Shown: piece after piece, positions 1,320 to 33,667 of the stretch | How positions within the stretch are numbered: the stretch's first letter is position 1 | How the letters are laid out: each line of letters starts with the position of its first letter | Source: a virus | Taxonomy: Duplodnaviria; Heunggongvirae; Uroviricota; Caudoviricetes | Direction: 5' to 3' (one strand) | Virus record (IMG/VR): IMGVR_UViG_3300028888_000086 | DNA: 34,059 nucleotides | Position numbers and translations under genes: made by a program | Notes under the pieces: model-generated | Told to the model about the DNA's origin: nothing | What the model saw: only the letters and a program-made list of their open reading frames with translations | The model's database searches: none

Positions 1320-1692
1320 ACTGCTTAACTATTCCCAAGTATCTGATTATGATAGTTTTTATAAAGAAGCCTTACCCGAAGTACTTAAAGTGAAGGGTGC
1401 TATTGAGGCCTGTAAGATACTTTACTCTATGTCAAATAATCGTATTATTTTATCTGTAGCTGAAGGAGAAAGAGTATATAAGATTGATCTACTAACATCT
1501 GGAGCAAATAAATCAATTTTTGGTACTTTAATTTATATGCCATTAGATAAAAGATTGGATTTATACGGTTATGATACTAATATTCCACTTATACAGTGGA
1601 AAAATAAAAAAGTAGTATTTAATAACTTAGAGACTTTATTAGAATTAGCAAAGGCTGATAAAATTTTCAGTAATATAATAAATGTACTATAA
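1300..1692 (+). CDS. hypothetical protein
   Basis: 130-aa ORF overlapping the previous stop; followed by a terminator. Confidence 0.75.
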   Translation: MLNLYYKLLNYSQVSDYDSFYKEALPEVLKVKGAIEACKILYSMSNNRIILSVAEGERVYKIDLLTSGANKSIFGTLIYMPLDKRLDLYGYDTNIPLIQWKNKKVVFNNLETLLELAKADKIFSNIINVL

Positions 1693-1699
1693 AAAATAA

Positions 1700-1732
1700 A
1701 AAGAGATAGGGTAAAATCTATCTCTTTCTTTT
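1700..1732 (+). terminator. intrinsic terminator
   Basis: AAAGAGATAG (1700-1709) / CTATCTCTTT (1718-1727) stem followed by a T-rich tract. Confidence 0.75.
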
Positions 1733-1734
1733 CT

Positions 1735-1751
1735 CCAAACTCTTATTTATG
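1735..1751 (+). promoter_or_regulatory. phage promoter motif copy
   Basis: CCAAACTCTTATTTATG immediately before ATG 1754. Confidence 0.6.
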
Positions 1752-1753
1752 AT

Positions 1754-2302
1754 ATGAGTAAAAAATTTTGTAAAGTAGATAAAAAGTGGTGTAAATTCTT
1801 AAAAAGAGGTATTTGTAGTTTTTGTAATACCAAATTAGTATATGTCAATAGATGTCCTCGTCTTAGATTAATAGAAACTACCAGATTACATGAACTTATG
1901 AAAATTGTTAATTTTAGTTCTGTTTTTACTTGTATCTATAATTGGTATGAAAGTCAACGTGGAAATTCAAAATTATACTATTATGTTTTTTACAAATGTT
2001 GTTTAATGAGGCCAAAAAAACATAATCTTACTGATTTATTTATAGATATAAAACTGTTTGAGGATCCTAATATTAAATTTCCAAATGTATCTGGTGTTAA
2101 AATAATAAATAAAGATAATATAAGCTATGGATTAGAATCTTTTAAATGGAATGATTGGGTATCTATGTTTATTACAAAAGAAACATTAGATAATTTTTCT
2201 CCGGAAGAAATAGTTGCAGCCTGTCTCTATGAAATGACTTTTTATGGATTTAATGAAGATGTTATTCAAGAATATTTAATTAAACTAGGTAAAGTAAAAT
2301 AA
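1754..2302 (+). CDS. hypothetical protein with Cys-rich N-terminus and DUF6557-like C-terminus
   Basis: N-terminal CKVDKKWC..GICSFC..RCP. C-terminal EEIVAACLYEMTFYGF resembles DUF6557-type proteins (recognised from memory). Confidence 0.6.
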   Translation: MSKKFCKVDKKWCKFLKRGICSFCNTKLVYVNRCPRLRLIETTRLHELMKIVNFSSVFTCIYNWYESQRGNSKLYYYVFYKCCLMRPKKHNLTDLFIDIKLFEDPNIKFPNVSGVKIINKDNISYGLESFKWNDWVSMFITKETLDNFSPEEIVAACLYEMTFYGFNEDVIQEYLIKLGKVK

Positions 2303-2883: not shown

Positions 2884-4391
2884 TTATTGATCTTGGTTGT
2901 CTACATAACCTTGAATCATTTCTCCATCCACTTTACCGGCATCCATTTTCTTGCCTTCTTGTTCGTAAAATTTAACACACTTCAGCTTAAATGCTTCTCT
3001 TAGTGGATCATCATTCTTTCTTAATACTATGCCTTCTCTAGGAACTTTATGATATATACATAAAGGTTCATCTTTTTCCATACCAAATCTCTTATCTACT
3101 TTCATAGCTTCTAATACATTTTCATGCCAATGTTCATCAATAGGAATATTTGGATATAAGTCTTTCAGTGTACCTTCATAAACAATATCAATTACATGTA
3201 TATTTGGAATTAATTCAGGATGTTCTTTTATTAATTTTTCGGTCCAAGTTTTTACATCACTCACATTCCACTCTTTTATACCTTTTTCTTCTATAGTAGT
3301 AATTCTATAAGGCATAAATTTATTTTCACTTTCTAAACACCCATAATCAAATTCAGGAAAATCAGTGTATCCATCAGTATCACCCATTATTTCTCCGTAT
3401 ACTGTCATACCCTCGGGAATATATGGTTCTAATATTTTTGCATATTTTCCCCAAATATTTTCTGTATACTTACTCTTAACTCCTTTTTTCCTAGAGACTT
3501 TTATGTATCTATTCTGTATTACGTTACGGCTAGAATAAATCAAATCATATTTTTCTTCTATCTTTTGCCACTTTTCTGGTAAACTAATACGTATATAATT
3601 AACTATATTATTAAACCAGTTAAATCTTGTATTAATAAGCTTTGGCACTCTACACAAAATATTAGCAAAGATAGCAGAAGTACCATGAATTTTAATACTT
3701 ATATTAACTACATCTTCTGGATTAATCTCTTTTATCTTCCTATTAAGCTGGTCTGTATCAAAATGCTTAAAGAATTGTCCATCTATAATATGATCGATTT
3801 TCTTTACACCCTTTTCTTAGGTTCTTGAGGTCTTTTTCTTGTTTCTGGTACATAGGGGACATAAACTTTGACAAATAACTCATCACATACAGTATCAAAG
3901 TCCTTATCCACATAATCTTCTAAATTGAGATCCTTTAATTCAGGTTTCCAATTTACAAGACTATCTTTATGAAACAAGAATCCGAATGATGGTTGTTTTC
4001 TTAATCTTATACATTTTACTCTTCCGTGTTTATTAAAGAAACCAACTAATTTTTTTGCTTCATCATTTTTACCCTCATCTAATAACTTCTGAACTTTTTC
4101 GTAATTTTTATTTAATGATCTTTCTCCTAGCTCAAACAAATTATTACAACTTAAGAAATTTTTATTCAGTTGTGTTTCGTTTGCAGCATATATCATTAAA
4201 TCTCCTTCTTTACATTCATCTTTTCTTACTACTATCTGAAATCCGTTTACTTGTGTTGTAGCTAAGAAATCTGAATTTTCTACTGGTGTAATTTTTCCTA
4301 ATCTAACAACAGTACAACAATATTCGTGTTGTATCTTTTCTGATTCTTTTAAAAATTGTGTCATTATTTTTTTTATTAAATTTAAATTCAT
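2884..4391 (-). CDS. ATP-dependent RNA ligase (DRB0094/Rnl2-like), interrupted by a 1-nt frameshift near 3812-3815
   Basis: N-terminal domain CTVVRLGKITPVENSDFL...KEGDLMIYA. Motif I SIKIHGTS (Lys at 3691-3693) lies between the two called ORFs. TVYGEIMG, REGIVLR and AFKLK lie in the distal ORF. One extra A restores a single 502-aa frame. Confidence 0.8.
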
Positions 4392-4406
4392 ATATAAGAG
4401 TTTGGG
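4389..4406 (-). promoter_or_regulatory. phage promoter motif copy
   Basis: CCCAAACTCTTATATATG; its terminal ATG is the track's start codon, so the true start may be ATG 4364. Confidence 0.6.
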
Positions 4407-4408
4407 TT

Positions 4409-4451
4409 AAAAAAAAACAAAAAGAGTAGACGTTTAATTTATCTACTCTTT
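4409..4451 (-). terminator. intrinsic terminator
   Basis: AAAGAGTAGA (4421-4430) / TCTACTCTTT (4442-4451) plus a long T tract on the minus strand; same stem as 32022-32051. Confidence 0.8.
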
Positions 4452-9032: not shown

Positions 9033-9611
9033 TTATGCTTTTATATTTTCGCTAACAAAGATACCAATTCTATATTCGGTATCTCCTTCTTTTTTATAAT
9101 TTACTTTTTGATGATAAATTTTATAATTTTCATTTTCTTTTAATATATTATGAGACTCCCAACCATTAGTTGTAGTTAATTTATTGATTAAGTCTTGTAG
9201 TTTAGATACTTTTGGAGCATATTCTTGAAGAACAGCAGTATCTTCCTTAGTATTCATTTTTTCTTTTAGTTTACCCAACTCTTCTTCTGCTTTTTCTTTA
9301 TTTAAGAAATTATCACCAGAATTATTTAAAGTGTATTGTTCAGGAGTTTCTAAATTAATAACTGTGTTTAAAAACTGATTACCTATTTTTTTACTTGATA
9401 TTTCAGCAATAACAGCAGAATAATCTCCAGTATTAGCAATAGCACTTCTAATATCCTCTAAAGATTTCATAGAAGTTGTTATTCCTAAACTTACAAAAAC
9501 TCCAAGAGGTTTAATAAATGTTTTACCATCAATAGAGTTTATATAGAAAGTTTTAAAATTTTGTTGATAAAAAACTTCAACAATGTCATTTACTTTTTCT
9601 CTAATAATCAT
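9033..9611 (-). CDS. hypothetical protein co-transcribed with the AAA/VWA pair
   Basis: 192 aa; ATGA overlap with the VWA gene stop. Confidence 0.8.
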   Translation of the reverse strand: MIIREKVNDIVEVFYQQNFKTFYINSIDGKTFIKPLGVFVSLGITTSMKSLEDIRSAIANTGDYSAVIAEISSKKIGNQFLNTVINLETPEQYTLNNSGDNFLNKEKAEEELGKLKEKMNTKEDTAVLQEYAPKVSKLQDLINKLTTTNGWESHNILKENENYKIYHQKVNYKKEGDTEYRIGIFVSENIKA

Positions 9612-11632
9612 TTATTACTAAATTTTCTAATCTTCATATGTTTCCAGTTTATCTTATCACTATCAAAATAATTACTATTTCCATAATTAAATCCATAGAG
9701 AAGATATCCTGGCATATTTTCCTCAACTTTATTCCACTCTTCTAAATAATCTTCAAAATCAGATATAACAATTAGTATAGCATCCTGTTTATAATTATCT
9801 CTGAAATATTCAATACCTTTTGCTAATCTTGTTCCTCCACCCATATGAATCTTTGGAACTCCTTTTTTAGGATCAATATTTTTAATATGTTCACCTAAAC
9901 TAGTATTCCAGGTTATAATATCATATTTTAACCCTCTATTAAGTTTTCTCATACATTGTCCAATAGTTTTTAAGATTCTATCAACAAGTCTAGTATCCAT
10001 AGATCCAGAGATATCGATTAAATACACGATCTTAGGCTGATTTGATATAGTTACTTTTCTAGAAACCGTAGGAGCGATAACAGATCTATTTATTCCTTTA
10101 TTGTAAAGTTTCATAAGATCTTTTTTAGTATCAACTTTAATAACACGACTTCTAAAATTTAACATAACCTCTCTTAATGCAATATCAACTGCATCAACAT
10201 CTTTATCGACCTCTCTTATAGCTTCAGAACCTCCATTACTTCCACAACCAATTCCACCTTTACTTCTTATTTTACCTAATTTTCTTAAGTTATCAGCTTC
10301 AACTCTAGAATCAGTATTATGGTCTTGTCTAGTGCTATTTCTTATTCCTTTGTATGGACTTTCTTTCTTTTCTCCACCTCCGTCTTTGCCATCTCCATCA
10401 CGACCATCTTGACCATCAGAATTACTATCTTCTGTTAATCCAAGGTCGCTCATTAAGTTAGATAATCCTTGCATTCCTTGACCAGAACCAATTTGTCCAT
10501 TTGCTATATCTCTTAAAGCATCATTATAACCTTTTTGATAATCACCTTGACCTGCAGAACTTTGAGAACCACCATTTCCACCCAGTTGAGAGCTTCCACT
10601 TCCACTACCTTGACCTGATGATGGTTGACCTCCACTTCCAGGCATATTTCCTTGACCTGGCATTCCCTGTCCTGGCATACCCTGATCATTCTGATTCCCT
10701 TGTCCTTGTTGTGATTGTTCTTGTCCAGATTGTCCCTGTTGGCCCATTTGTTGATTCTGCATACTCTTACCAACTTGCCCATTATTATAGTCTCTCAAAG
10801 CATCATTATAACCTTTTTGATACTCTGGACTCATATTAGCAAATTGATTTAATGCATTCTGAATATCCTGTTGAGTAACCTGGGATGTATCACCATTACC
10901 TCCCATTTGAATATTGACAAGCATTTTTACAAACTTATCTAAATTCTTGATAATCAGCATAAGATATTCTACATAGGTCAAATCATTAGGGAATTCATAT
11001 CTTTCAGGAATCATTAGTTTTATTTTAGATTCCTTCTGCATTTTATCCAATCTATCTTGCAGGTCCTTCTTAAATGCTGGATCTACTGCATGATCTTGTA
11101 AATACTTCAATAACTCTTCATCCGTTTTTGGAAGAGCTGAAGATATATCATGCTCCATTTCTTCAATATCATCTTTACTAAGAACAGAAGAATTAACTTC
11201 CATATCCATAGCAATATTATGAATTTGATGATTAAGATATGGATCATCAATAACCCTTTCAATTAACTTATCGGCAAAATTAATACCACAATTTTTATTA
11301 ATTTCTGCAATAAGATCATCTCTATAGTTATTAAAAACATTACAAATACTAGAATCAAGATCTTCATGTATTCCATCCATATGACCTAAATAAATATGAC
11401 CATACTCATGCATCATGATTCTAAAATCTGTTCTGTCAATTCCAAGTTTACTACATACAATTTTATAAACTATATGACCAGAATCTTTATCTTTATATTT
11501 AAAGCAATACCCCAAATCATTTAATTTGGGGTCATACTTTTCATCAATGTCTAATATTAATAGATTACCAAACCTATTATATGTACTATCAACAAAATTT
11601 TTTATTGCTTCTAGTTCAGATTTTGTTCTCAT
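9608..11632 (-). CDS. metallopeptidase (HExxH) plus G/Q-rich linker plus VWA domain protein (DUF2201-like)
   Basis: MMHEYGHIY and HNIAMDMEVN in the N-terminal domain. MIDAS DISGS, MGGGT and VISDFE in the C-terminal domain. Confidence 0.85.
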   Translation of the reverse strand: MRTKSELEAIKNFVDSTYNRFGNLLILDIDEKYDPKLNDLGYCFKYKDKDSGHIVYKIVCSKLGIDRTDFRIMMHEYGHIYLGHMDGIHEDLDSSICNVFNNYRDDLIAEINKNCGINFADKLIERVIDDPYLNHQIHNIAMDMEVNSSVLSKDDIEEMEHDISSALPKTDEELLKYLQDHAVDPAFKKDLQDRLDKMQKESKIKLMIPERYEFPNDLTYVEYLMLIIKNLDKFVKMLVNIQMGGNGDTSQVTQQDIQNALNQFANMSPEYQKGYNDALRDYNNGQVGKSMQNQQMGQQGQSGQEQSQQGQGNQNDQGMPGQGMPGQGNMPGSGGQPSSGQGSGSGSSQLGGNGGSQSSAGQGDYQKGYNDALRDIANGQIGSGQGMQGLSNLMSDLGLTEDSNSDGQDGRDGDGKDGGGEKKESPYKGIRNSTRQDHNTDSRVEADNLRKLGKIRSKGGIGCGSNGGSEAIREVDKDVDAVDIALREVMLNFRSRVIKVDTKKDLMKLYNKGINRSVIAPTVSRKVTISNQPKIVYLIDISGSMDTRLVDRILKTIGQCMRKLNRGLKYDIITWNTSLGEHIKNIDPKKGVPKIHMGGGTRLAKGIEYFRDNYKQDAILIVISDFEDYLEEWNKVEENMPGYLLYGFNYGNSNYFDSDKINWKHMKIRKFSNK
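10509..10822. repeat. 32-nt direct repeat (31/32 identical) encoding YQKGYNDALRD twice
   Basis: TCTCT(T/C)AAAGCATCATTATAACCTTTTTGATA at 10509-10540 and 10791-10822. Confidence 0.9.
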
Positions 11633-11644
11633 AGTATTTATTTT

Positions 11645-13201
11645 TTATACTCTAATTTCTGGTATTATCTTTGAAACTGCTGGTGAAAAGTTGATTGCAT
11701 ATTTTCTAAACATCTTCAACTTATATTCAACTTGACGAAGTTTAGTCATGGTATCATTTAAATCTTTCTTAATATCAGTTTCATAAGATTTTTCTGGTTT
11801 CTCTATTAAAGATTTTAATTCAGTGATTATATCTTTGACTCTATTCCAAGTGACAATTTTAGCAGCAAAAGCTTCTGGTGTAATATCAAAATCTTTAAAA
11901 ACATCTTTACTTGTACTAGAATCAGAATCTCCAATTTTTACTTCAGGTTTAAACTTCTCAATTAATAAGTTACCAGTTTTAACTAAACAGGTAAAAATTG
12001 GCTTAATCGTTTCTGGATTAATTGGACGTTCAATATTTTCAAGATCTTTATCCTTTATAATTTCATTAACTTTATTAAACAAAGCTTGTAATTCAGGATC
12101 AGTAAAAGCTTTTGTAGTTTTTGACATCTTCTGTAAATAATCTTCATACTCAGAAAGTCTGTCATTATTTAATTTTTCTACATCATTTATAACTTTTATC
12201 ATATATTCTTGAAAATCTTTACCAACCTTTGTTACAACAACATCATCACCGTTAGTTGTTTTCTTTGGATTTCTACTAACACCAACTCCACAAAGACCAT
12301 CAATAACATTTCGATATAGATTACTAGATATTCCTTCTTTTCCAAAACATTGATAAATCGCAATCGTAGCTTCTCTCAGATAACATAAAGTTCTAAAAGT
12401 AATAAATCCATATAACTTTGAATCTTTATCAGTATCCGAATAAATATTTTGTAAATCAGTAACAGCAAGATCGACAGGTTTATCTCCTTGAGTCATTAAA
12501 ATTTTCATTACATCTTTTAACCCTCTTTCAATATACTCTCCTATCATATTATATTTTTTCTCAGGAATATCTTTTTCTTGTTCATCTAATTCCCGCATAT
12601 TCTTTTCTAACTCCGTAAAGTAATTTTTCTTCTCACCCCTCATACTACCCTCAAATTTGTTTAAAAATACATTTAAATCATCTGCAGTAGGAATGATATT
12701 GAAAATCATAAAACGATTCATTACTGGAGGAAGTAAGTTCATAGTATTTGATAAATTTTGAGCATAGTTACCAGCAGATACAATTAACGTATCATCTGGT
12801 ATTTTTTCTGTTTTAACCATTCTCTCAAAAATCAAATGTAATAAAGCAGCTTGTACATATTCATTCGCTGTAGTAATTTCATCTAAGAATAATAAGGTTT
12901 TCTTTCCCTCATTATGATTTCTTATAACTTCCTCAAACCAACTAGGTCTAAGAGGTACTGCTGCCATTTTACGATCATAACTTACATCCTTTGGAGCTAC
13001 ATCATATCCAGTTACTTCTTCTGCAGTAGTTGAATTACCTCTAAGTAATACAACTTCATAACCTCTAACTTTTGCAAATAAATTTACCGTTGAGCTTTTA
13101 CCTGCTCCTGGATTAGATAAGAATAATACCGGAACTCCGCTTTTTTCAGCAATTTTTAACGCACAGAAAATATCTGTATTAATGTTATTTTTTCTTGCCA
13201 T
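11645..13201 (-). CDS. MoxR-like AAA+ ATPase
   Basis: Walker A SNPGAGKSS, Walker B LLFLDEI, sensor AGN and the RF arginine-finger region; adjacent to a VWA partner. Confidence 0.85.
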   Translation of the reverse strand: MARKNNINTDIFCALKIAEKSGVPVLFLSNPGAGKSSTVNLFAKVRGYEVVLLRGNSTTAEEVTGYDVAPKDVSYDRKMAAVPLRPSWFEEVIRNHNEGKKTLLFLDEITTANEYVQAALLHLIFERMVKTEKIPDDTLIVSAGNYAQNLSNTMNLLPPVMNRFMIFNIIPTADDLNVFLNKFEGSMRGEKKNYFTELEKNMRELDEQEKDIPEKKYNMIGEYIERGLKDVMKILMTQGDKPVDLAVTDLQNIYSDTDKDSKLYGFITFRTLCYLREATIAIYQCFGKEGISSNLYRNVIDGLCGVGVSRNPKKTTNGDDVVVTKVGKDFQEYMIKVINDVEKLNNDRLSEYEDYLQKMSKTTKAFTDPELQALFNKVNEIIKDKDLENIERPINPETIKPIFTCLVKTGNLLIEKFKPEVKIGDSDSSTSKDVFKDFDITPEAFAAKIVTWNRVKDIITELKSLIEKPEKSYETDIKKDLNDTMTKLRQVEYKLKMFRKYAINFSPAVSKIIPEIRV

Positions 13202-13807: not shown

Positions 13808-14380
13808 TTATTCATACAGTGCTTTAGAAACACTTGCTAAACTTGGATGATTTTTTAAACTATTCCAATTATTTTTTAATTTATCATTAGTGTCTTCTAT
13901 TGCTTTAGTAATGTCAACATCTCTATAATAAGTTTGTAATATCATAACTAATAAGGCATGTTCTAAACTTATTGGAGACAAGGCTATCATATTATATTCA
14001 TCATTTAACGTTTTGTAGAAGAAATCAGTTCCCCATTTAATAATAGGTGACTTTATACAAACTCTCCATACAGATTCAACATATGTTGCAAGTTCATTAT
14101 AATTATCTATATGAATAGGGTCTTCTAATCTAATCTCTTCTACTTCTTTATTTTTTAATTCTTGTATTGAAGAGTTTTTATTATAAGTATTTTCTTTTTC
14201 TATAAAATCCCAACTTATAATATCATCAGATGTAGATAAATATTTATATATATCTTTATTTTCTTCTATATCTAAATCTACAGTTATAAATTCAGAAGAT
14301 TTATTTAATTTTTCTAAAACTTCTTTAATTTTACTAACTCTTATACTTACTTTTATTTTTCTATTTTGCATATACTCCAA
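13808..14380 (-). CDS. hypothetical protein
   Basis: 190-aa ORF overlapping the upstream phosphoesterase. Confidence 0.75.
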   Translation of the reverse strand: MEYMQNRKIKVSIRVSKIKEVLEKLNKSSEFITVDLDIEENKDIYKYLSTSDDIISWDFIEKENTYNKNSSIQELKNKEVEEIRLEDPIHIDNYNELATYVESVWRVCIKSPIIKWGTDFFYKTLNDEYNMIALSPISLEHALLVMILQTYYRDVDITKAIEDTNDKLKNNWNSLKNHPSLASVSKALYE

Positions 14381-15564
14381 TTATTTTTATATTGTTCTGC
14401 ATATAATATTTCTTCATCTGTTGGTGGATCTAAATTTATAACTTTTGGAAATTTTAAAACTTCCCAACAATCAGGATATTGACAATGAGCATGAATAGAC
14501 CATAAATTATTGTTTTTATTAACTTCTGAAAATTCTTTATCAAATTTATTCATATCTCTATTTCCATATATTAAAGTTCCAATATAACGAGGATCTATTT
14601 GCTCAATATATTTAATTCCAGCATGAGAACTAATATATCTATTTTTATTTAGTGTTATATAGTTAAACATATTTAATTTTTTATTCAATTTTTCTAGATA
14701 TACTCGAGCTTGATTACTATCTAAATCATCATATTCTTTTGAAGTTGTGTTTAAAAAATCTTCTGGTAATGTTCTTAGTAAATATTCTTTAAGCTCTTTT
14801 TTCGCATTTCCATCCTTTAACATTAAATAACCTAGATATTTTCTTAATCTAAGCTCATGATTTCCTTCTAACCATAAAAAATTATCTTTTTTATTGTTTA
14901 TTATGTAATCAGTTATTTTTCTAGATCCATTTTTTTCTGGACCATCTATATAATCCCCATAAAATATAGTTAAATCATATAGGGAAAATTTGGGTAATTT
15001 ATTAAATAATTTAAAATTTGAATGTAAATCAGAAACATGTAATATTTTTGAATTTATTGTAAATGAATACTTCTTTTTTTGTTTCTTCCAATAATTTAAA
15101 ACATCTGAATAAGTTTTAATAATTGTTTGTTCTGATACAGGAAACAAAGAATAGTTAAGTATATCATGCTCTAATTCATGTTTTTTCTTAGTTTGATAAT
15201 AATTTACTGTATATTTTTTTCCACTTGTTGTATAATCTTCTGGTATATCATGAATTACGTAAAAAATAGTATATCCAAATATTAAAGCTACAGTTTCTAA
15301 AAAATTATTAGCTTCATTTTCAGAATCTATAACTATTAAACAACCTTTAGACATTCTAGTACATACAACTTCAATAAATCTTCTATATACTAAATCACTA
15401 AAAGATCTATTTAATATTTCTCTTCCTGGATATAATAATTCAGGAATAGCATATATTTTTCTAATTAAATTAATATCAATAAAATAATTTTCTAATTTTT
15501 CACTCTTTACCCAATTTAATTTTTCATCTTTTACTAATCCTTTTAAAATAATTAAACTTCTCAT
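14353..15564 (-). CDS. Pnkp-like protein: degenerate P-loop kinase domain plus calcineurin-like metallophosphoesterase
   Basis: Phosphoesterase motifs SDLHS, YGDYIDG, LEGNHE, SHAG and IHAH. The N-terminus aligns with the AAA_33-type kinase but the P-loop reads GLVKDEKL. Confidence 0.8.
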   Translation of the reverse strand: MRSLIILKGLVKDEKLNWVKSEKLENYFIDINLIRKIYAIPELLYPGREILNRSFSDLVYRRFIEVVCTRMSKGCLIVIDSENEANNFLETVALIFGYTIFYVIHDIPEDYTTSGKKYTVNYYQTKKKHELEHDILNYSLFPVSEQTIIKTYSDVLNYWKKQKKKYSFTINSKILHVSDLHSNFKLFNKLPKFSLYDLTIFYGDYIDGPEKNGSRKITDYIINNKKDNFLWLEGNHELRLRKYLGYLMLKDGNAKKELKEYLLRTLPEDFLNTTSKEYDDLDSNQARVYLEKLNKKLNMFNYITLNKNRYISSHAGIKYIEQIDPRYIGTLIYGNRDMNKFDKEFSEVNKNNNLWSIHAHCQYPDCWEVLKFPKVINLDPPTDEEILYAEQYKNNWSICKIEK

Positions 15565-18567: not shown

Positions 18568-18604
18568 AAACAATCCTTTAAAATACAAATTATGAACAGA
18601 ATTT

Positions 18605-18624
18605 CTATATATAAGGCTTTGAGG
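18605..18624 (-). promoter_or_regulatory. phage promoter motif copy
   Basis: CCTCAAAGCCTTATATATAG, back-to-back with the plus-strand copy at 18642-18662. Confidence 0.6.
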
Positions 18625-18641
18625 GGCTCTAAATTACATAC

Positions 18642-18662
18642 CATTGAAATTCTTATAATAGA
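18642..18662 (+). promoter_or_regulatory. phage promoter motif copy directly before the rlaP-like start
   Basis: CATTGAAATTCTTATAATAGA, then ATG 18664. Confidence 0.55.
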
Positions 18663-18663
18663 G

Positions 18664-19887
18664 ATGAATAATTTAACATTTGAAGAGATTAGAAAAAATA
18701 ATAATTTATTATTTGAAAGTATACGGGGATCTCATTTATTCGGATTAGACACAGAGACATCAGACGTAGATACATTTGGAATTTTCTGTTGTGAGCCAGA
18801 TTTATTATTAGGAACAGGTAATAATTATGTATCTATGGTTCAATCCGAAAAGAATGATGATTACTGGGATGAAATAGGTAAGTTTGTAAAAGAGCTATGT
18901 AAATCTAATCCAAATGCGTTAGAGGCTTTATTTACACCAGAAAAATATATTAAGTATTTCAATCCAGTATTACAACCTCTTTGGGATATAAGAGATCAAT
19001 TAATTACTAAGGATTGTTTTAGGTCTTTTTCTGGATATGCTGTGATGCAAATAAAGAAAGCAAAGGGATTAGGTAAAGCGATTAATATAGATCCAGACTC
19101 AGTCAAAAGAAGAAAAAATCCATTAGAATTTTGTTGGGTGGCACAGAAGGATGGAGATGGAGATATAAGATTAGATAAATGGTTAAGAAAATGTGGATTA
19201 AAACAAGAACATTGTGGCATAGTTCATCTTACTAATAGTCTTGAAATGTATAACCTTTATTATGATTGGTTTGCTGATAAAGACTTGAGTGTAGAAAGTT
19301 ATGCAAAAATGAGATACGGAGAAATTAATAATCCAGCTAAATATGAAAAAGAATTAATTGAAGGTAAAAAAACTGAATTTATAGGATATAGAGGCTTACT
19401 TGATCCATCAGACCTAGAAACTAGTCAATTAAGGTGTTCTAGTATTAGTAAAGAAGATGCAGAAAGTCCTTTATGTACATTTCAATATAATTATTTAGCA
19501 TTTTCTCAACATTGTGCTGATTATAAAAGATATTGGGATTGGGTTAAAAATAGAAATCCAGAACGTTTTGAATTGAATAAAGGTTATAACTATGATGGAA
19601 AAAATTGTTGTGCCTGTATTCGATTAATGACTATGGCTCGTGAAATGGCTGAAGGTAAAGGTATGCTATTAGATCGTTCAGATATAGATAGAGACTTTTT
19701 ATTAGATATTAAGACACATAAGCTAACATTTGACGAGATTATGAAACAAATGGAATCTATACAAGCTAATATGGAAGTAGCATTTCAAAAATCAACTTTA
19801 CCAGAAAAACCAGATGCTGAACTTCTAGAAAAAATATTAGTTAGTATTAGAAAATCTCACTACGGCCTAAAAATAGATGAGGGCTGA
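18664..19887 (+). CDS. DNA polymerase beta-superfamily nucleotidyltransferase, RlaP-type
   Basis: IRGSHLFGLDTETSDVDTFGIF (GS..DxD), KSNPNALEALF and the C-terminal helical region LPEKPD. ATG 18664 is preferred because the longer start overlaps promoter motifs. Confidence 0.85.
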   Translation: MNNLTFEEIRKNNNLLFESIRGSHLFGLDTETSDVDTFGIFCCEPDLLLGTGNNYVSMVQSEKNDDYWDEIGKFVKELCKSNPNALEALFTPEKYIKYFNPVLQPLWDIRDQLITKDCFRSFSGYAVMQIKKAKGLGKAINIDPDSVKRRKNPLEFCWVAQKDGDGDIRLDKWLRKCGLKQEHCGIVHLTNSLEMYNLYYDWFADKDLSVESYAKMRYGEINNPAKYEKELIEGKKTEFIGYRGLLDPSDLETSQLRCSSISKEDAESPLCTFQYNYLAFSQHCADYKRYWDWVKNRNPERFELNKGYNYDGKNCCACIRLMTMAREMAEGKGMLLDRSDIDRDFLLDIKTHKLTFDEIMKQMESIQANMEVAFQKSTLPEKPDAELLEKILVSIRKSHYGLKIDEG

Positions 19888-20738: not shown

Positions 20739-20810
20739 TGCGGGTTGGAGAAGTGGTATCTCGTTTGGCTCATAACCAAAAGATCGGTGGATCGTAACCA
20801 CCACCCGCTA
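20739..20810 (+). tRNA. tRNA-Met(CAT), initiator-like, with atypical T-loop; CCA not encoded
   Basis: Acceptor TGCGGGT/ACCCGCT with discriminator A, D stem GAGA/TCTC, anticodon arm TTTGG-CTCATAA-CCAAA, T stem GGTGG/CCACC with loop ATCGTAA. Confidence 0.85.
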
Positions 20811-20852
20811 CATTTCGAAACACAAAATTCATATATTTTAAATTATTATACA

Positions 20853-30268: not shown

Positions 30269-30646
30269 ATGAAAAACTTAATTAATTTAACAATCTTACT
30301 ATTTATTTCACAAATAGTGTTATCTCAAGAAGTTAATTATACTGTAACTATTTATAATGCAGTATCAAATCAATGTAATGAAAATCCATTAATAACAGCA
30401 GATGGATCAATAATAGATATAAAAAAAGTAGAAAATGGCATAATAAAATGGGTTGCAGTAAGTAGAGATATATTAAAAGAGTTTAAATATGGTGATAAGA
30501 TTGAAATAATTAGTGATGATCCATTAATCTCAGGGGTATATGAAATTCATGATACGATGTCAAAAAGATTTACAAAACGTATAGATATTTTAATGCCTAG
30601 AAAAATAAATAAAGGTAAATGGATTGTAAAAATAAGGAGGGCTTGA
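30269..30646 (+). CDS. secreted 3D-domain (double-psi beta-barrel, peptidoglycan-acting) protein
   Basis: Signal peptide, TIYNA..CNENPLITADG, VAVSRD, HDTM and RIDIL supply the three Asp motifs. Confidence 0.8.
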   Translation: MKNLINLTILLFISQIVLSQEVNYTVTIYNAVSNQCNENPLITADGSIIDIKKVENGIIKWVAVSRDILKEFKYGDKIEIISDDPLISGVYEIHDTMSKRFTKRIDILMPRKINKGKWIVKIRRA

Positions 30647-30660
30647 AATCCTTATAGTTG
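30641..30660 (+). promoter_or_regulatory. phage promoter motif copy driving a non-coding unit
   Basis: GCTTGAAATCCTTATAGTTG overlapping the 3D gene stop. Confidence 0.6.
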
Positions 30661-30975
30661 AGAGGTGAGGCTTGTTGGATACGCAAAGACTTCAAGAGTT
30701 TTACTTAATAGATGATTATATGATAAATAAAAAGTATTCAAATTGATAATAGAATAATAGATTATATTATCAGTACTTAACTCTGGTCGAAATTCCTTCC
30801 TCTCATTTTAACTCGTAAGATACCCCTGAACCTTTACTGTAGATGCCTATGGACGGTTTACGAGATAAGATAACCACTAAAGATTGGGAACTAATACAGG
30901 GCGAAGATTATAAGGAGAAATTTTATAATTCTGTTTTATAATTGGAGTACTAGTCTGATAATAGATTCAGAAATA
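30659..30975 (+). ncRNA. candidate approx. 315-nt structured RNA: 147-nt rod plus pseudoknotted domain
   Basis: TGAGAGG/CCTCTCA, AGAGTT/AACTCT, AAGTA/TACTT and TGATAAT/ATTATCA nested stems. CTCGTA/TACGAG plus AACC/GGTT is crossed by CCCTG/CAGGG. No ORF. Confidence 0.55.
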
Positions 30976-31058
30976 AGATGAATAGAATGAAGTAATTTAT
31001 TCTATTTATTTTTTAGTTAATAAAAAAAGAGAAACCAATTAAGGTTTCTTATTTTATT
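30973..31058. terminator. tandem terminator hairpins between convergent units
   Basis: GAATAGAAT/ATTCTATTT plus T tract, and AAGAGAAACC/GGTTTCTT flanked by A and T tracts. Confidence 0.6.
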
Positions 31059-31059
31059 T

Positions 31060-31728
31060 TTAATCGTATTTAAAATCTGTATGTTTTTTAAAGAATTCTA
31101 TAATATCTTTATTCATTTTATAATTATTTATAATATCATCACTATATGTTTCATGAGTATTTTCATCTGTATATAGTTTTTCTTCTTGTAAAAATTGTTC
31201 TGGTGTTATTTCTTCCCAAAATACTCTATAATTATCTACAACCTTGAGATCCGGACTTTTACTATCTATATACTCTTCTCCATCATAACCTTTCTTTATT
31301 GGTAATTTTCCTATATAAGTAAAGGGATCCATCTTAAAGCCCATCAAATATTCTTCATCCTGTATTTCTTTAAGACTATCTATAAACTCATTCACTTCAC
31401 CAATAATAGCACAGATTTGATACACTACTTCATCCTCTCTAAAAAGCCATCTTAGACTAAATCCATGAGCATTTTTAAGTTCTGGATTCATTTCTTTTTC
31501 TAGTTCTTCTCGAGAATTAAAATATCTATGCATTAATGGTTCATAGTTCCACCATATATCTACTTGCTTATCAAACGGTAATAAAGAAGGTTTAACCCAA
31601 TAATGATAACCTCCTCCACCAGGTGCTATTATCTTTATTACTTTATCTCCTTGTTGTTCTTTTGATGAGAAATATTCCTTCATTTTTTCATAATACTCAT
31701 CTACTGTCCAGATGTTTAATTCTTTCAT
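31060..31728 (-). CDS. hypothetical protein
   Basis: 222-aa ORF with no recognised motif. Confidence 0.8.
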   Translation of the reverse strand: MKELNIWTVDEYYEKMKEYFSSKEQQGDKVIKIIAPGGGGYHYWVKPSLLPFDKQVDIWWNYEPLMHRYFNSREELEKEMNPELKNAHGFSLRWLFREDEVVYQICAIIGEVNEFIDSLKEIQDEEYLMGFKMDPFTYIGKLPIKKGYDGEEYIDSKSPDLKVVDNYRVFWEEITPEQFLQEEKLYTDENTHETYSDDIINNYKMNKDIIEFFKKHTDFKYD

Positions 31729-32822: not shown

Positions 32823-33141
32823 TTTCTTGTTGTTTTTCTAATTGTTCTATATATTCTAAAGGTGAGTATCCAGGCGGTAAAGTAGTTATATTTTTAAACC
32901 CATTTTCTTCTGTTATTAAAGATTCGGATTCTTTTATAGCTCCTTTATGTTTAGATCCATAGTCACCCTCTATCTTTTTTGTTGCTGGATTTATGTCTCC
33001 CCAATCAATTCTCTCGCCACTGTCAATAGGTTCAATATAATAAGTTTTTCCGGTTTTTAGACTTTTAACTATAAATCTTCCTGTATCATCACTATTTACT
33101 AAGAAATTTTTAATAGCTTCATTTTTCATAGTATTCTTCAA
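32815..33141 (-). CDS. conserved hypothetical protein
   Basis: DDTGRFIVKS..YYIEPI..WGDINPATKK..ITEENGFKNI; globular-looking and tightly coupled to the Tpt1 gene. Confidence 0.8.
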   Translation of the reverse strand: MKNTMKNEAIKNFLVNSDDTGRFIVKSLKTGKTYYIEPIDSGERIDWGDINPATKKIEGDYGSKHKGAIKESESLITEENGFKNITTLPPGYSPLEYIEQLEKQQEND

Positions 33142-33667
33142 TTATATATTTTTGATTTATATATTCAGTTAACCATACATTATTATTAGACTTGAAAAAT
33201 TTAATACCATCTTCTTTCATTTTCTTAGTATTTATAGACAAAACTACAGGATTTCCATGTCTAGCTCCAACTTTCTTAGCTGTTTCGATATCACTAGAAA
33301 GATGAACATGTTGCCTTTTTCCTTTTAATATGCCTTGTTTATAAATTGACTCTAAGAATTTGCTAGAAGTTCCATGATATAAGACGTCTGGGGGTAATTC
33401 TTCTTTTAACTCAACATCAACATCAATAGAGTGTCCTTGTCTTGCTCTTATTTTAGTTTTATCTTTATTAAATTCATATCGCTGTTTATCATTAGTTTCA
33501 ACAATTTCTTCTAATAACTCTTTTGTATATTGATGTGATTTAATAAGCTCATCTACTTTTCTCCAGCCATTTTTATCAATTAATCCTTTTTCAAATCCCT
33601 CTTTATCATGTCTTAATAAAAATGCTAAATGTTTTCCTTGTTTTATTATATCAGACATTATTTTCAT
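33119..33667 (-). CDS. kptA: RNA 2'-phosphotransferase Tpt1/KptA (NAD+-dependent)
   Basis: LLRH, DKQRY, IRARQGHS, LYHGT, RQHVHLS and GARHG are the Tpt1 signature motifs. Confidence 0.93.
   Translation of the reverse strand: MKIMSDIIKQGKHLAFLLRHDKEGFEKGLIDKNGWRKVDELIKSHQYTKELLEEIVETNDKQRYEFNKDKTKIRARQGHSIDVDVELKEELPPDVLYHGTSSKFLESIYKQGILKGKRQHVHLSSDIETAKKVGARHGNPVVLSINTKKMKEDGIKFFKSNNNVWLTEYINQKYIIEEYYEK

Follow-up and report, generated by a model that had tools for sequence, protein, structure and literature searches.

Two of the HDV variants of Weinberg et al. 2015, one from an Ackermannviridae phage and one from C. briggsae, were crystallised in 2026 (PMC13635239). The phage ribozyme has a P1.1 that consists of a U-A pair plus a U·U, cleaves at 4.2-4.6 per min, and is dead with C58U; the C. 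briggsae ribozyme carries C1-G37 and A38 and cleaves at 9.3 per min (PMC13635239). Both lose activity on a C75U-type change (PMC13635239). In the C1-G37/U22-A38 subtype, changes of G25 also nearly abolish cleavage, with none seen in 60 s for G25A and a 1000-fold slower reaction for 6-thioG. A further group, the theta ribozymes of gut phages, follow tRNAs and give them a defined 3′ end (PMC10879173). Among the papers searched, none linked an 'HDV-like ribozyme' to a 'jumbo phage'; the only ribozymes named in the Jug phage paper are group I-like.

The DNA analysed here, a stretch of 34,059 nt referred to as the window, comes from a large, AT-rich ruminant-gut phage and is present in sheep and goat gut runs. 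Relatives of its 125-aa gene sit on contigs of 340-380 kb. The ORF-free gap between this gene and a convergent gene is occupied by a conserved RNA of about 355 nt that runs up to a U-tract (Table 1), longer than the roughly 315 nt given by an earlier sequence-only reading. That reading correctly saw no ORF in the unit, as none of at least 40 aa lies within 30647-31059. It also assigned the unit its own promoter and terminator. The promoter-like motif is indeed enriched in the window (0 of 100 shuffles reach its count), and we infer a transcription start near 30658-60; in each of the five lineages described below, a similar motif precedes the ribozyme by 115-305 nt. At the other end, the hairpin and U-tract are kept among relatives and their A-U/G·U changes fit the plus strand, although a simple terminator scan gave no score. 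As a weak hint, an RNA contig of run X3 stops at 31016, near the U-tract. Elsewhere in the window, adjacent AAA ATPase and VWA-domain genes form a MoxR/VWA-type pair (9608-13201), and a tRNA-Met(CAT) at 20739-20811 has an unusual T-loop, with A at position 54 and U at position 58.

Folding energy compared with shuffles is weak for this locus (z -0.7 for domain 1, +0.3 for domain 2, and -2.5 for the whole) and does not by itself single out the helices, so the support for the RNA comes from its homologues. An Rfam search of the window, at the gathering threshold and at E up to 10, gave no meaningful match.

Table 1. Features of the RNA unit and its flanks (window coordinates)
Feature	Position	Strand	Remarks
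125-aa gene	30269-30646		upstream of the RNA; named 3D-domain protein by JGI in relatives
Phage promoter-like motif	30642-30656	+	seen 16 times in the window, 5.25 expected
Domain 1, predicted 5′ product	30659-30805	+	147 nt; covariation in 8 sequences
Domain 1 closing stem, 11 bp	30659-70/30795-805	+	
Domain 1 hairpin, 4 bp	30672-86	+	loop 30677-82 pairs with 30734-39
Domain 1 long arm	30688-700/30779-88	+	variable AU-rich interior
Predicted cleavage site, A(-1)/C1	30811/30812	+	placed by HDV numbering
HDV-like ribozyme	30812-30901	+	from homologue comparison and published active sequences
P1, 7 bp	30812-18/30858-64	+	
P2	30824-29/30895-901	+	sixth pair A30829-U30895 beyond bulged A30896
P3, 3 bp	30830-32/30855-57	+	
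L3, 22 nt	30833-54	+	
14-nt hairpin inserted in L3	30838-30851	+	between the C24 (30837) and G25 (30852) equivalents; window lineage only
P1.1	U30835-A30865 with U30834·U30866	+	
P4 region, 24 nt	30867-90	+	
J4/2 (CUAA)	30891-94	+	catalytic-C equivalent is C30891
3′ extension (P5)	30902-30948	+	C-G pair, 3x3 purine-rich internal loop, variable hairpin, GAGUA
Small invariant hairpin, window lineage	30954-30971	+	never varies, hence gives no covariation evidence
Terminator-like AU-rich hairpin and U-tract	30981-31013	+	5 of 11 pairs change between A-U and G·U on one side
Second, bidirectional terminator-like site	31029-50		
Convergent gene	31060-31728		downstream of the RNA

Nine further distinct copies belong to the same lineage (L123, L125, L132, L163-L166, L315 and L158). 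All but L158, which is a partial contig, follow the same 125-aa gene. Compared with the window, the copies are 73-83% identical in this gene, 62-75% in domain 1, 92-99% over 30812-901 and 77-94% over 30902-978; conservation does not stop at P2 but extends to about 30975. Exact-motif scans from the window sequence recovered two true copies in metagenomes and only chance matches in IMG/VR and GTDB, and blastn searches of INPHARED, using the window, L263, L285 and L312 as queries, gave matches at chance level only. Two copies carry additional sequence between the promoter-like motif and domain 1: L132 has an insert of about 46 nt with a 7-bp hairpin (about 4385-4432), and L125 has a shorter A-rich one. 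In the more distant phages L126 (about 716-775), L127 (about 4385-4450) and L131 (about 3760-3780), the 3D-domain gene is accompanied by another small unit with a promoter-like motif, a GCCAAGG start and a U-tract, with a GC-rich hairpin in L126 and L127; this is possibly another small RNA.

The sequence-only reading described domain 2 as a nested pseudoknot in HDV strand order with a CUAA joiner like J4/2, and every strand it listed is present where it was placed. The helices differ in extent, as P1 has 7 bp rather than 6, P3 has 3 rather than 4, and P2 gains a sixth pair. The double pseudoknot of P1, P2, P3, P1.1 and P4 occurs in HDV order in all five lineages, and the catalytic C stands first in J4/2, followed by N-A-A and P2 (CUAA in the window; CUAA or CCAA in all homologues). 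The equivalents of the core positions U20, U22-A38, C75, A77 and A78 are all intact in the window, although at a within-lineage identity of about 94% the invariance of C30891 carries little weight. Inside the window lineage the sole covarying pair of domain 2 is P2 pair 30827/30898, which takes U-A, C-G and A-U. The P1.1 mini-helix is present as U22-A38 with U21·U39 (C21·U39 in L311) instead of the viral C-G pairs and, being invariant, shows no covariation. The lack of a canonical G+1 and of a P1.1 GG, noted earlier as a weakness, is real, but it is no defect, since C1-G37 and a U-A/U·U P1.1 are normal in this HDV subtype and the active crystallised ribozymes have C1 or a U-A plus U·U P1.1.

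A classical descriptor that requires G at position 1 and G38 does not match the window. A relaxed HDV descriptor, composed after the window had been seen, recovers both published ribozymes (sequences from bioRxiv 10.64898/2026.02.27.708514) as well as L263 and L285 without an insert; to recover the window lineage, it must allow for 14 inserted nt in L3. Run on 150 shuffled windows it gave 2 matches, and the 2.2 Mb of loci that were fetched contained no unrelated one.

Searching with a covariance model built on the window lineage brought up divergent homologues in four phage records of IMG/VR, namely L263 in G001 (254 kb; E 4e-4), L285 in G037 (47 kb; E 2e-5; first reached through a motif scan), L311 in G003 (305 kb; E 7e-8), and L312 in G008 (401 kb, complete; E 2e-5), all E-values being rough. 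Weaker model matches in G024, G015, G074 and at a second place in G001 were taken as chance. Lak-B2 and LR756502 gave no copy among the candidates scored, which in large records were a part of the total. The four outside lineages have an L3 of 7 nt and lack the 14-nt insert. Together with the window lineage they share a 7-bp P1 that differs in sequence but always starts with C1-G37, a 3-bp P3, U20, U22-A38, A38-U39 directly after P1, and C-Y-A-A directly before the P2 3′ strand. The covariation proposed earlier as a check on the helices is present in P1 and P2, where both-sided changes affect 5 of 7 and 3 of 5 pairs, respectively, in a model-fitted alignment that leans towards the model. P3 differs only in L311 and L312, where it stays paired.

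These homologues bear on the alternative that domain 2 is an unrelated fold that merely imitates HDV in its strand order, or the degenerate core of a tmRNA, an RNase P RNA or a group I-like RNA. An unrelated fold would agree with the lack of an Rfam match in the window and with the extra conserved 3′ domain, which published HDV constructs do not have. However, the cores of the insert-free homologues are almost identical, base for base, to the published active one, and in L285 both L3 and the AAACUAA junction are identical to those of the Ackermannviridae ribozyme. The helix that resembles a group I P7 (30888-93 with 30951-56) varies on one side without compensation, and searches of this locus gave neither a tRNA nor a tmRNA. 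A new fold, which the sequence-only reading had left as an option, is thus very improbable, and domain 2 is very likely of HDV descent and fold. The insert-free homologues are very probably active. Two other motifs were set aside or left weak: words in the 3′ domain that recall a hammerhead proved on inspection to lack its core, and a long-range helix (30881-87/30950-56) shows only a wobble change.

In each of the five lineages a predicted stem closes 1-9 nt before C1, and in the aligned relatives of the window lineage the closed upstream stem ends 3-6 nt before it. The upstream RNAs themselves differ between lineages, and in L263 and L285 they are predicted to fold much more stably than their shuffles. 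Structured, ORF-free RNAs that the model finds unrelated to domain 1 precede the ribozyme in L263 (1205-1504, z -5.4), L285 (9903-10016, z -6.6) and L311 (1669-1843, minus strand, z -2.0), of which the first two have no Rfam match. The L312 leader (about 1660-1780, minus strand) contains a 32-codon ORF that encodes a hydrophobic stretch and, close to the end, a Cys, and the hairpin that follows this ORF ends beside ribozyme position 1. A tRNA scan found none beside any copy scanned, and the tRNA 3′ end within 5 nt of the cut site that characterises the tRNA-associated subset of theta ribozymes is absent here.

Domain 1 is a structured phage RNA without a known family. It had been described as a long interrupted rod, but its conserved pairing instead forms a three-way junction with a loop-loop pseudoknot. 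Both-sided changes occur in 11 of 30 proposed pairs, against none of 500 shuffles and at most 3 in slid controls. In all eight sequences the loop of the hairpin can form 6-7 bp with a conserved word of the AU-rich arm; L166, L123 and L165 carry changes that match on the two sides. This loop-loop pairing accounts for the conserved word AAGUAUUC. ARAGORN and Rfam recognised no tRNA, tmRNA or other family in domain 1. Searches with the domain-1 model covered 39 phage records and the regions upstream of L263 and L285 and gave no homologue, so domain 1 is detected only in the window lineage. Three resemblances were rejected: the apparent anticodon arm of a tRNA-Leu(CAA) is not retained in L123, L125 and L165; a tmRNA is contradicted by the lack of a T-stem and of a common tag stop in the AU-rich part; and a T-loop-like word has no T-stem and is partly paired within the arm.

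What distinguishes the window lineage from its homologues is L3. The earlier reading gave its length correctly as 22 nt, and the comparison resolves this into a standard HDV loop plus an inserted 14-nt hairpin. A compact L3 of 7-8 nt is present in L263, L285, L311 and L312 and absent from the window, which sets the window RNA apart from plain HDV-family members. The insert, loop included, is invariant except for U30838C, a change that strengthens its stem. Both partners of the metal-binding U20·G25 pair are present (U30833 and G30852), but a secondary-structure model without pseudoknots or metal pairs G30852 with C30837, the C24 equivalent, at a probability predicted as 0.86-0.99. Since G25 is needed for fast cleavage and is predicted to be paired, the activity of the window lineage is in doubt. 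Two further elements surround the core. The P4 loop word CACUAAAG is retained in all five lineages, and the P5 extension is found in all five, each time with a different stem. The P4 of the window is more altered than in the other four. No precedent for the L3 hairpin, the conserved P4 loop or the conserved 3′ stem was found in the literature covered, which included the two crystallised variants.

The element is covered by RNA contigs from three runs, which belong to three studies. Uncut contigs bridge 30811/30812 in X3 (30541-849), in X8 (30682-857) and, with one contig, in X18. They may be precursor, read-through or DNA, and as assembled contigs they show presence, not level; they fit slow, partial or absent cleavage alike and prove none of these. 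The X18 contig is identical to the window over 30805-904 and differs at its domain-1 end, a pattern that points to stronger constraint on the ribozyme than on domain 1. The RNA contigs gave no cover over the convergent gene, which is not counted as evidence.

The paired G25, the stabilising U30838C variant and the uncut contigs could together mean that the ribozyme is retired, with catalysis lost through the L3 insert and the altered P4, and with the HDV fold retained for a structural or protein-binding role within an uncut ncRNA of about 355 nt. Additionally, an ORF follows the ribozyme in L285, L311 and L312, whereas in the window lineage a terminator-like hairpin follows, leaving no downstream ORF to release. 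Against this reading, every core position is intact, the closed upstream stem still stops 3-6 nt before C1 in the aligned relatives, and the contigs carry no information on level. On balance, we regard a retired ribozyme as rather unlikely. Instead, the ribozyme of the window lineage is somewhat more probably still cleaving than not, and because the insert competes for G25, cutting is probably slow or incomplete.

An almost invariant insert and loop beside an intact core could also indicate a switchable ribozyme, in which the insert holds G25 off until an RNA, protein or metabolite partner opens it, making the release of domain 1 conditional. A metabolite link has been suggested for the F. prausnitzii HDV-like ribozyme (PMC6765202). 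Against such a switch, no partner or covarying pairing was found for the insert loop. An inhibitory 'off' pairing between L3 and L4 also failed, as L4 is constant yet its complement is missing in L263, L311 and L312. We consider conditional release unlikely. It is likewise improbable, if marginally less so, that the L3 hairpin is a built-in off-switch on G25 in a conditionally activated HDV-like ribozyme that, given a signal, sets free a new class of pseudoknotted phage RNA, with the P4 loop and 3′ extension forming a peripheral domain new to the HDV family.

The explanation that we favour, with a little better than even confidence, is HDV-type processing of the upstream domain 1. The phage promoter would drive a transcript of about 355 nt, the 3′ half of which would fold as an HDV-family ribozyme of the C1-G37/U22-A38 subtype. 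If the ribozyme is active, C30891 would serve as general acid, Mg2+ at the U20·G25 pair would activate the 2′-OH, and the cut would fall between A30811 and C30812. Cleavage would release domain 1, a closed RNA of 147 nt, with a short tail that bears a terminal 2′,3′-cyclic phosphate, and would leave a downstream 5′-OH RNA of about 200 nt. The unit would thus be a processing module that provides a defined 3′ end for the upstream RNA and a 5′-OH end for the downstream RNA, applying to a non-tRNA RNA the job that theta ribozymes do for tRNAs. The sequence-only reading proposed a divergent HDV-family ribozyme with a possible role in processing the upstream RNA; the homologues bear out the fold, and processing is predicted from it. 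The window also holds RNA-repair-type genes, for a Tpt1/KptA 2′-phosphotransferase (33119-33667), an RlaP-like nucleotidyltransferase (18592-19887) and a metallophosphoesterase (14353-15564) that matches a PHROG annotated as RNA ligase; their products could act on cyclic-phosphate or 5′-OH ends.

These results add to the HDV-like ribozymes a conserved family from large gut phages, one that escapes both standard descriptors and Rfam, and also delineate a covarying 147-nt phage RNA without a known family. The cleavage chemistry itself would be ordinary. The value of the family lies in a natural matched set, in which four copies with a compact L3 stand against one lineage whose active-site loop carries a selected hairpin; whether this lineage proves active, dead or switchable, each outcome informs how far the HDV core can be remodelled.

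Among known systems, the theta ribozymes resemble the window RNA in being HDV-like, in occurring in gut phages and in placing the cut site a few bases past a folded upstream RNA (PMC10879173). However, they are minimal, lack P4, begin with G1 and follow tRNAs, whereas the window RNA has a 24-nt P4 region, C1 and a non-tRNA RNA upstream. In Rfam, L285 scores best against RF02682 HDV-F-prausnitzii (20.4 bits, E 0.066; gathering score 44), the consensus of which also has A after P1 and a similar L3; the window itself is unmatched, and RF02682 is bacterial and lies upstream of glmM. With the crystallised variants the family shares a 7-bp P1, a 3-bp P3, U22-A38, a 21·39 pyrimidine mismatch and a CUAA junction (PMC13635239). 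[quoted passage not shown] Unlike these variants, the present family features the conserved CACUAAAG P4 loop, a conserved 3′ P5, a fixed upstream structured RNA and, in the window lineage, the 14-nt L3 hairpin.
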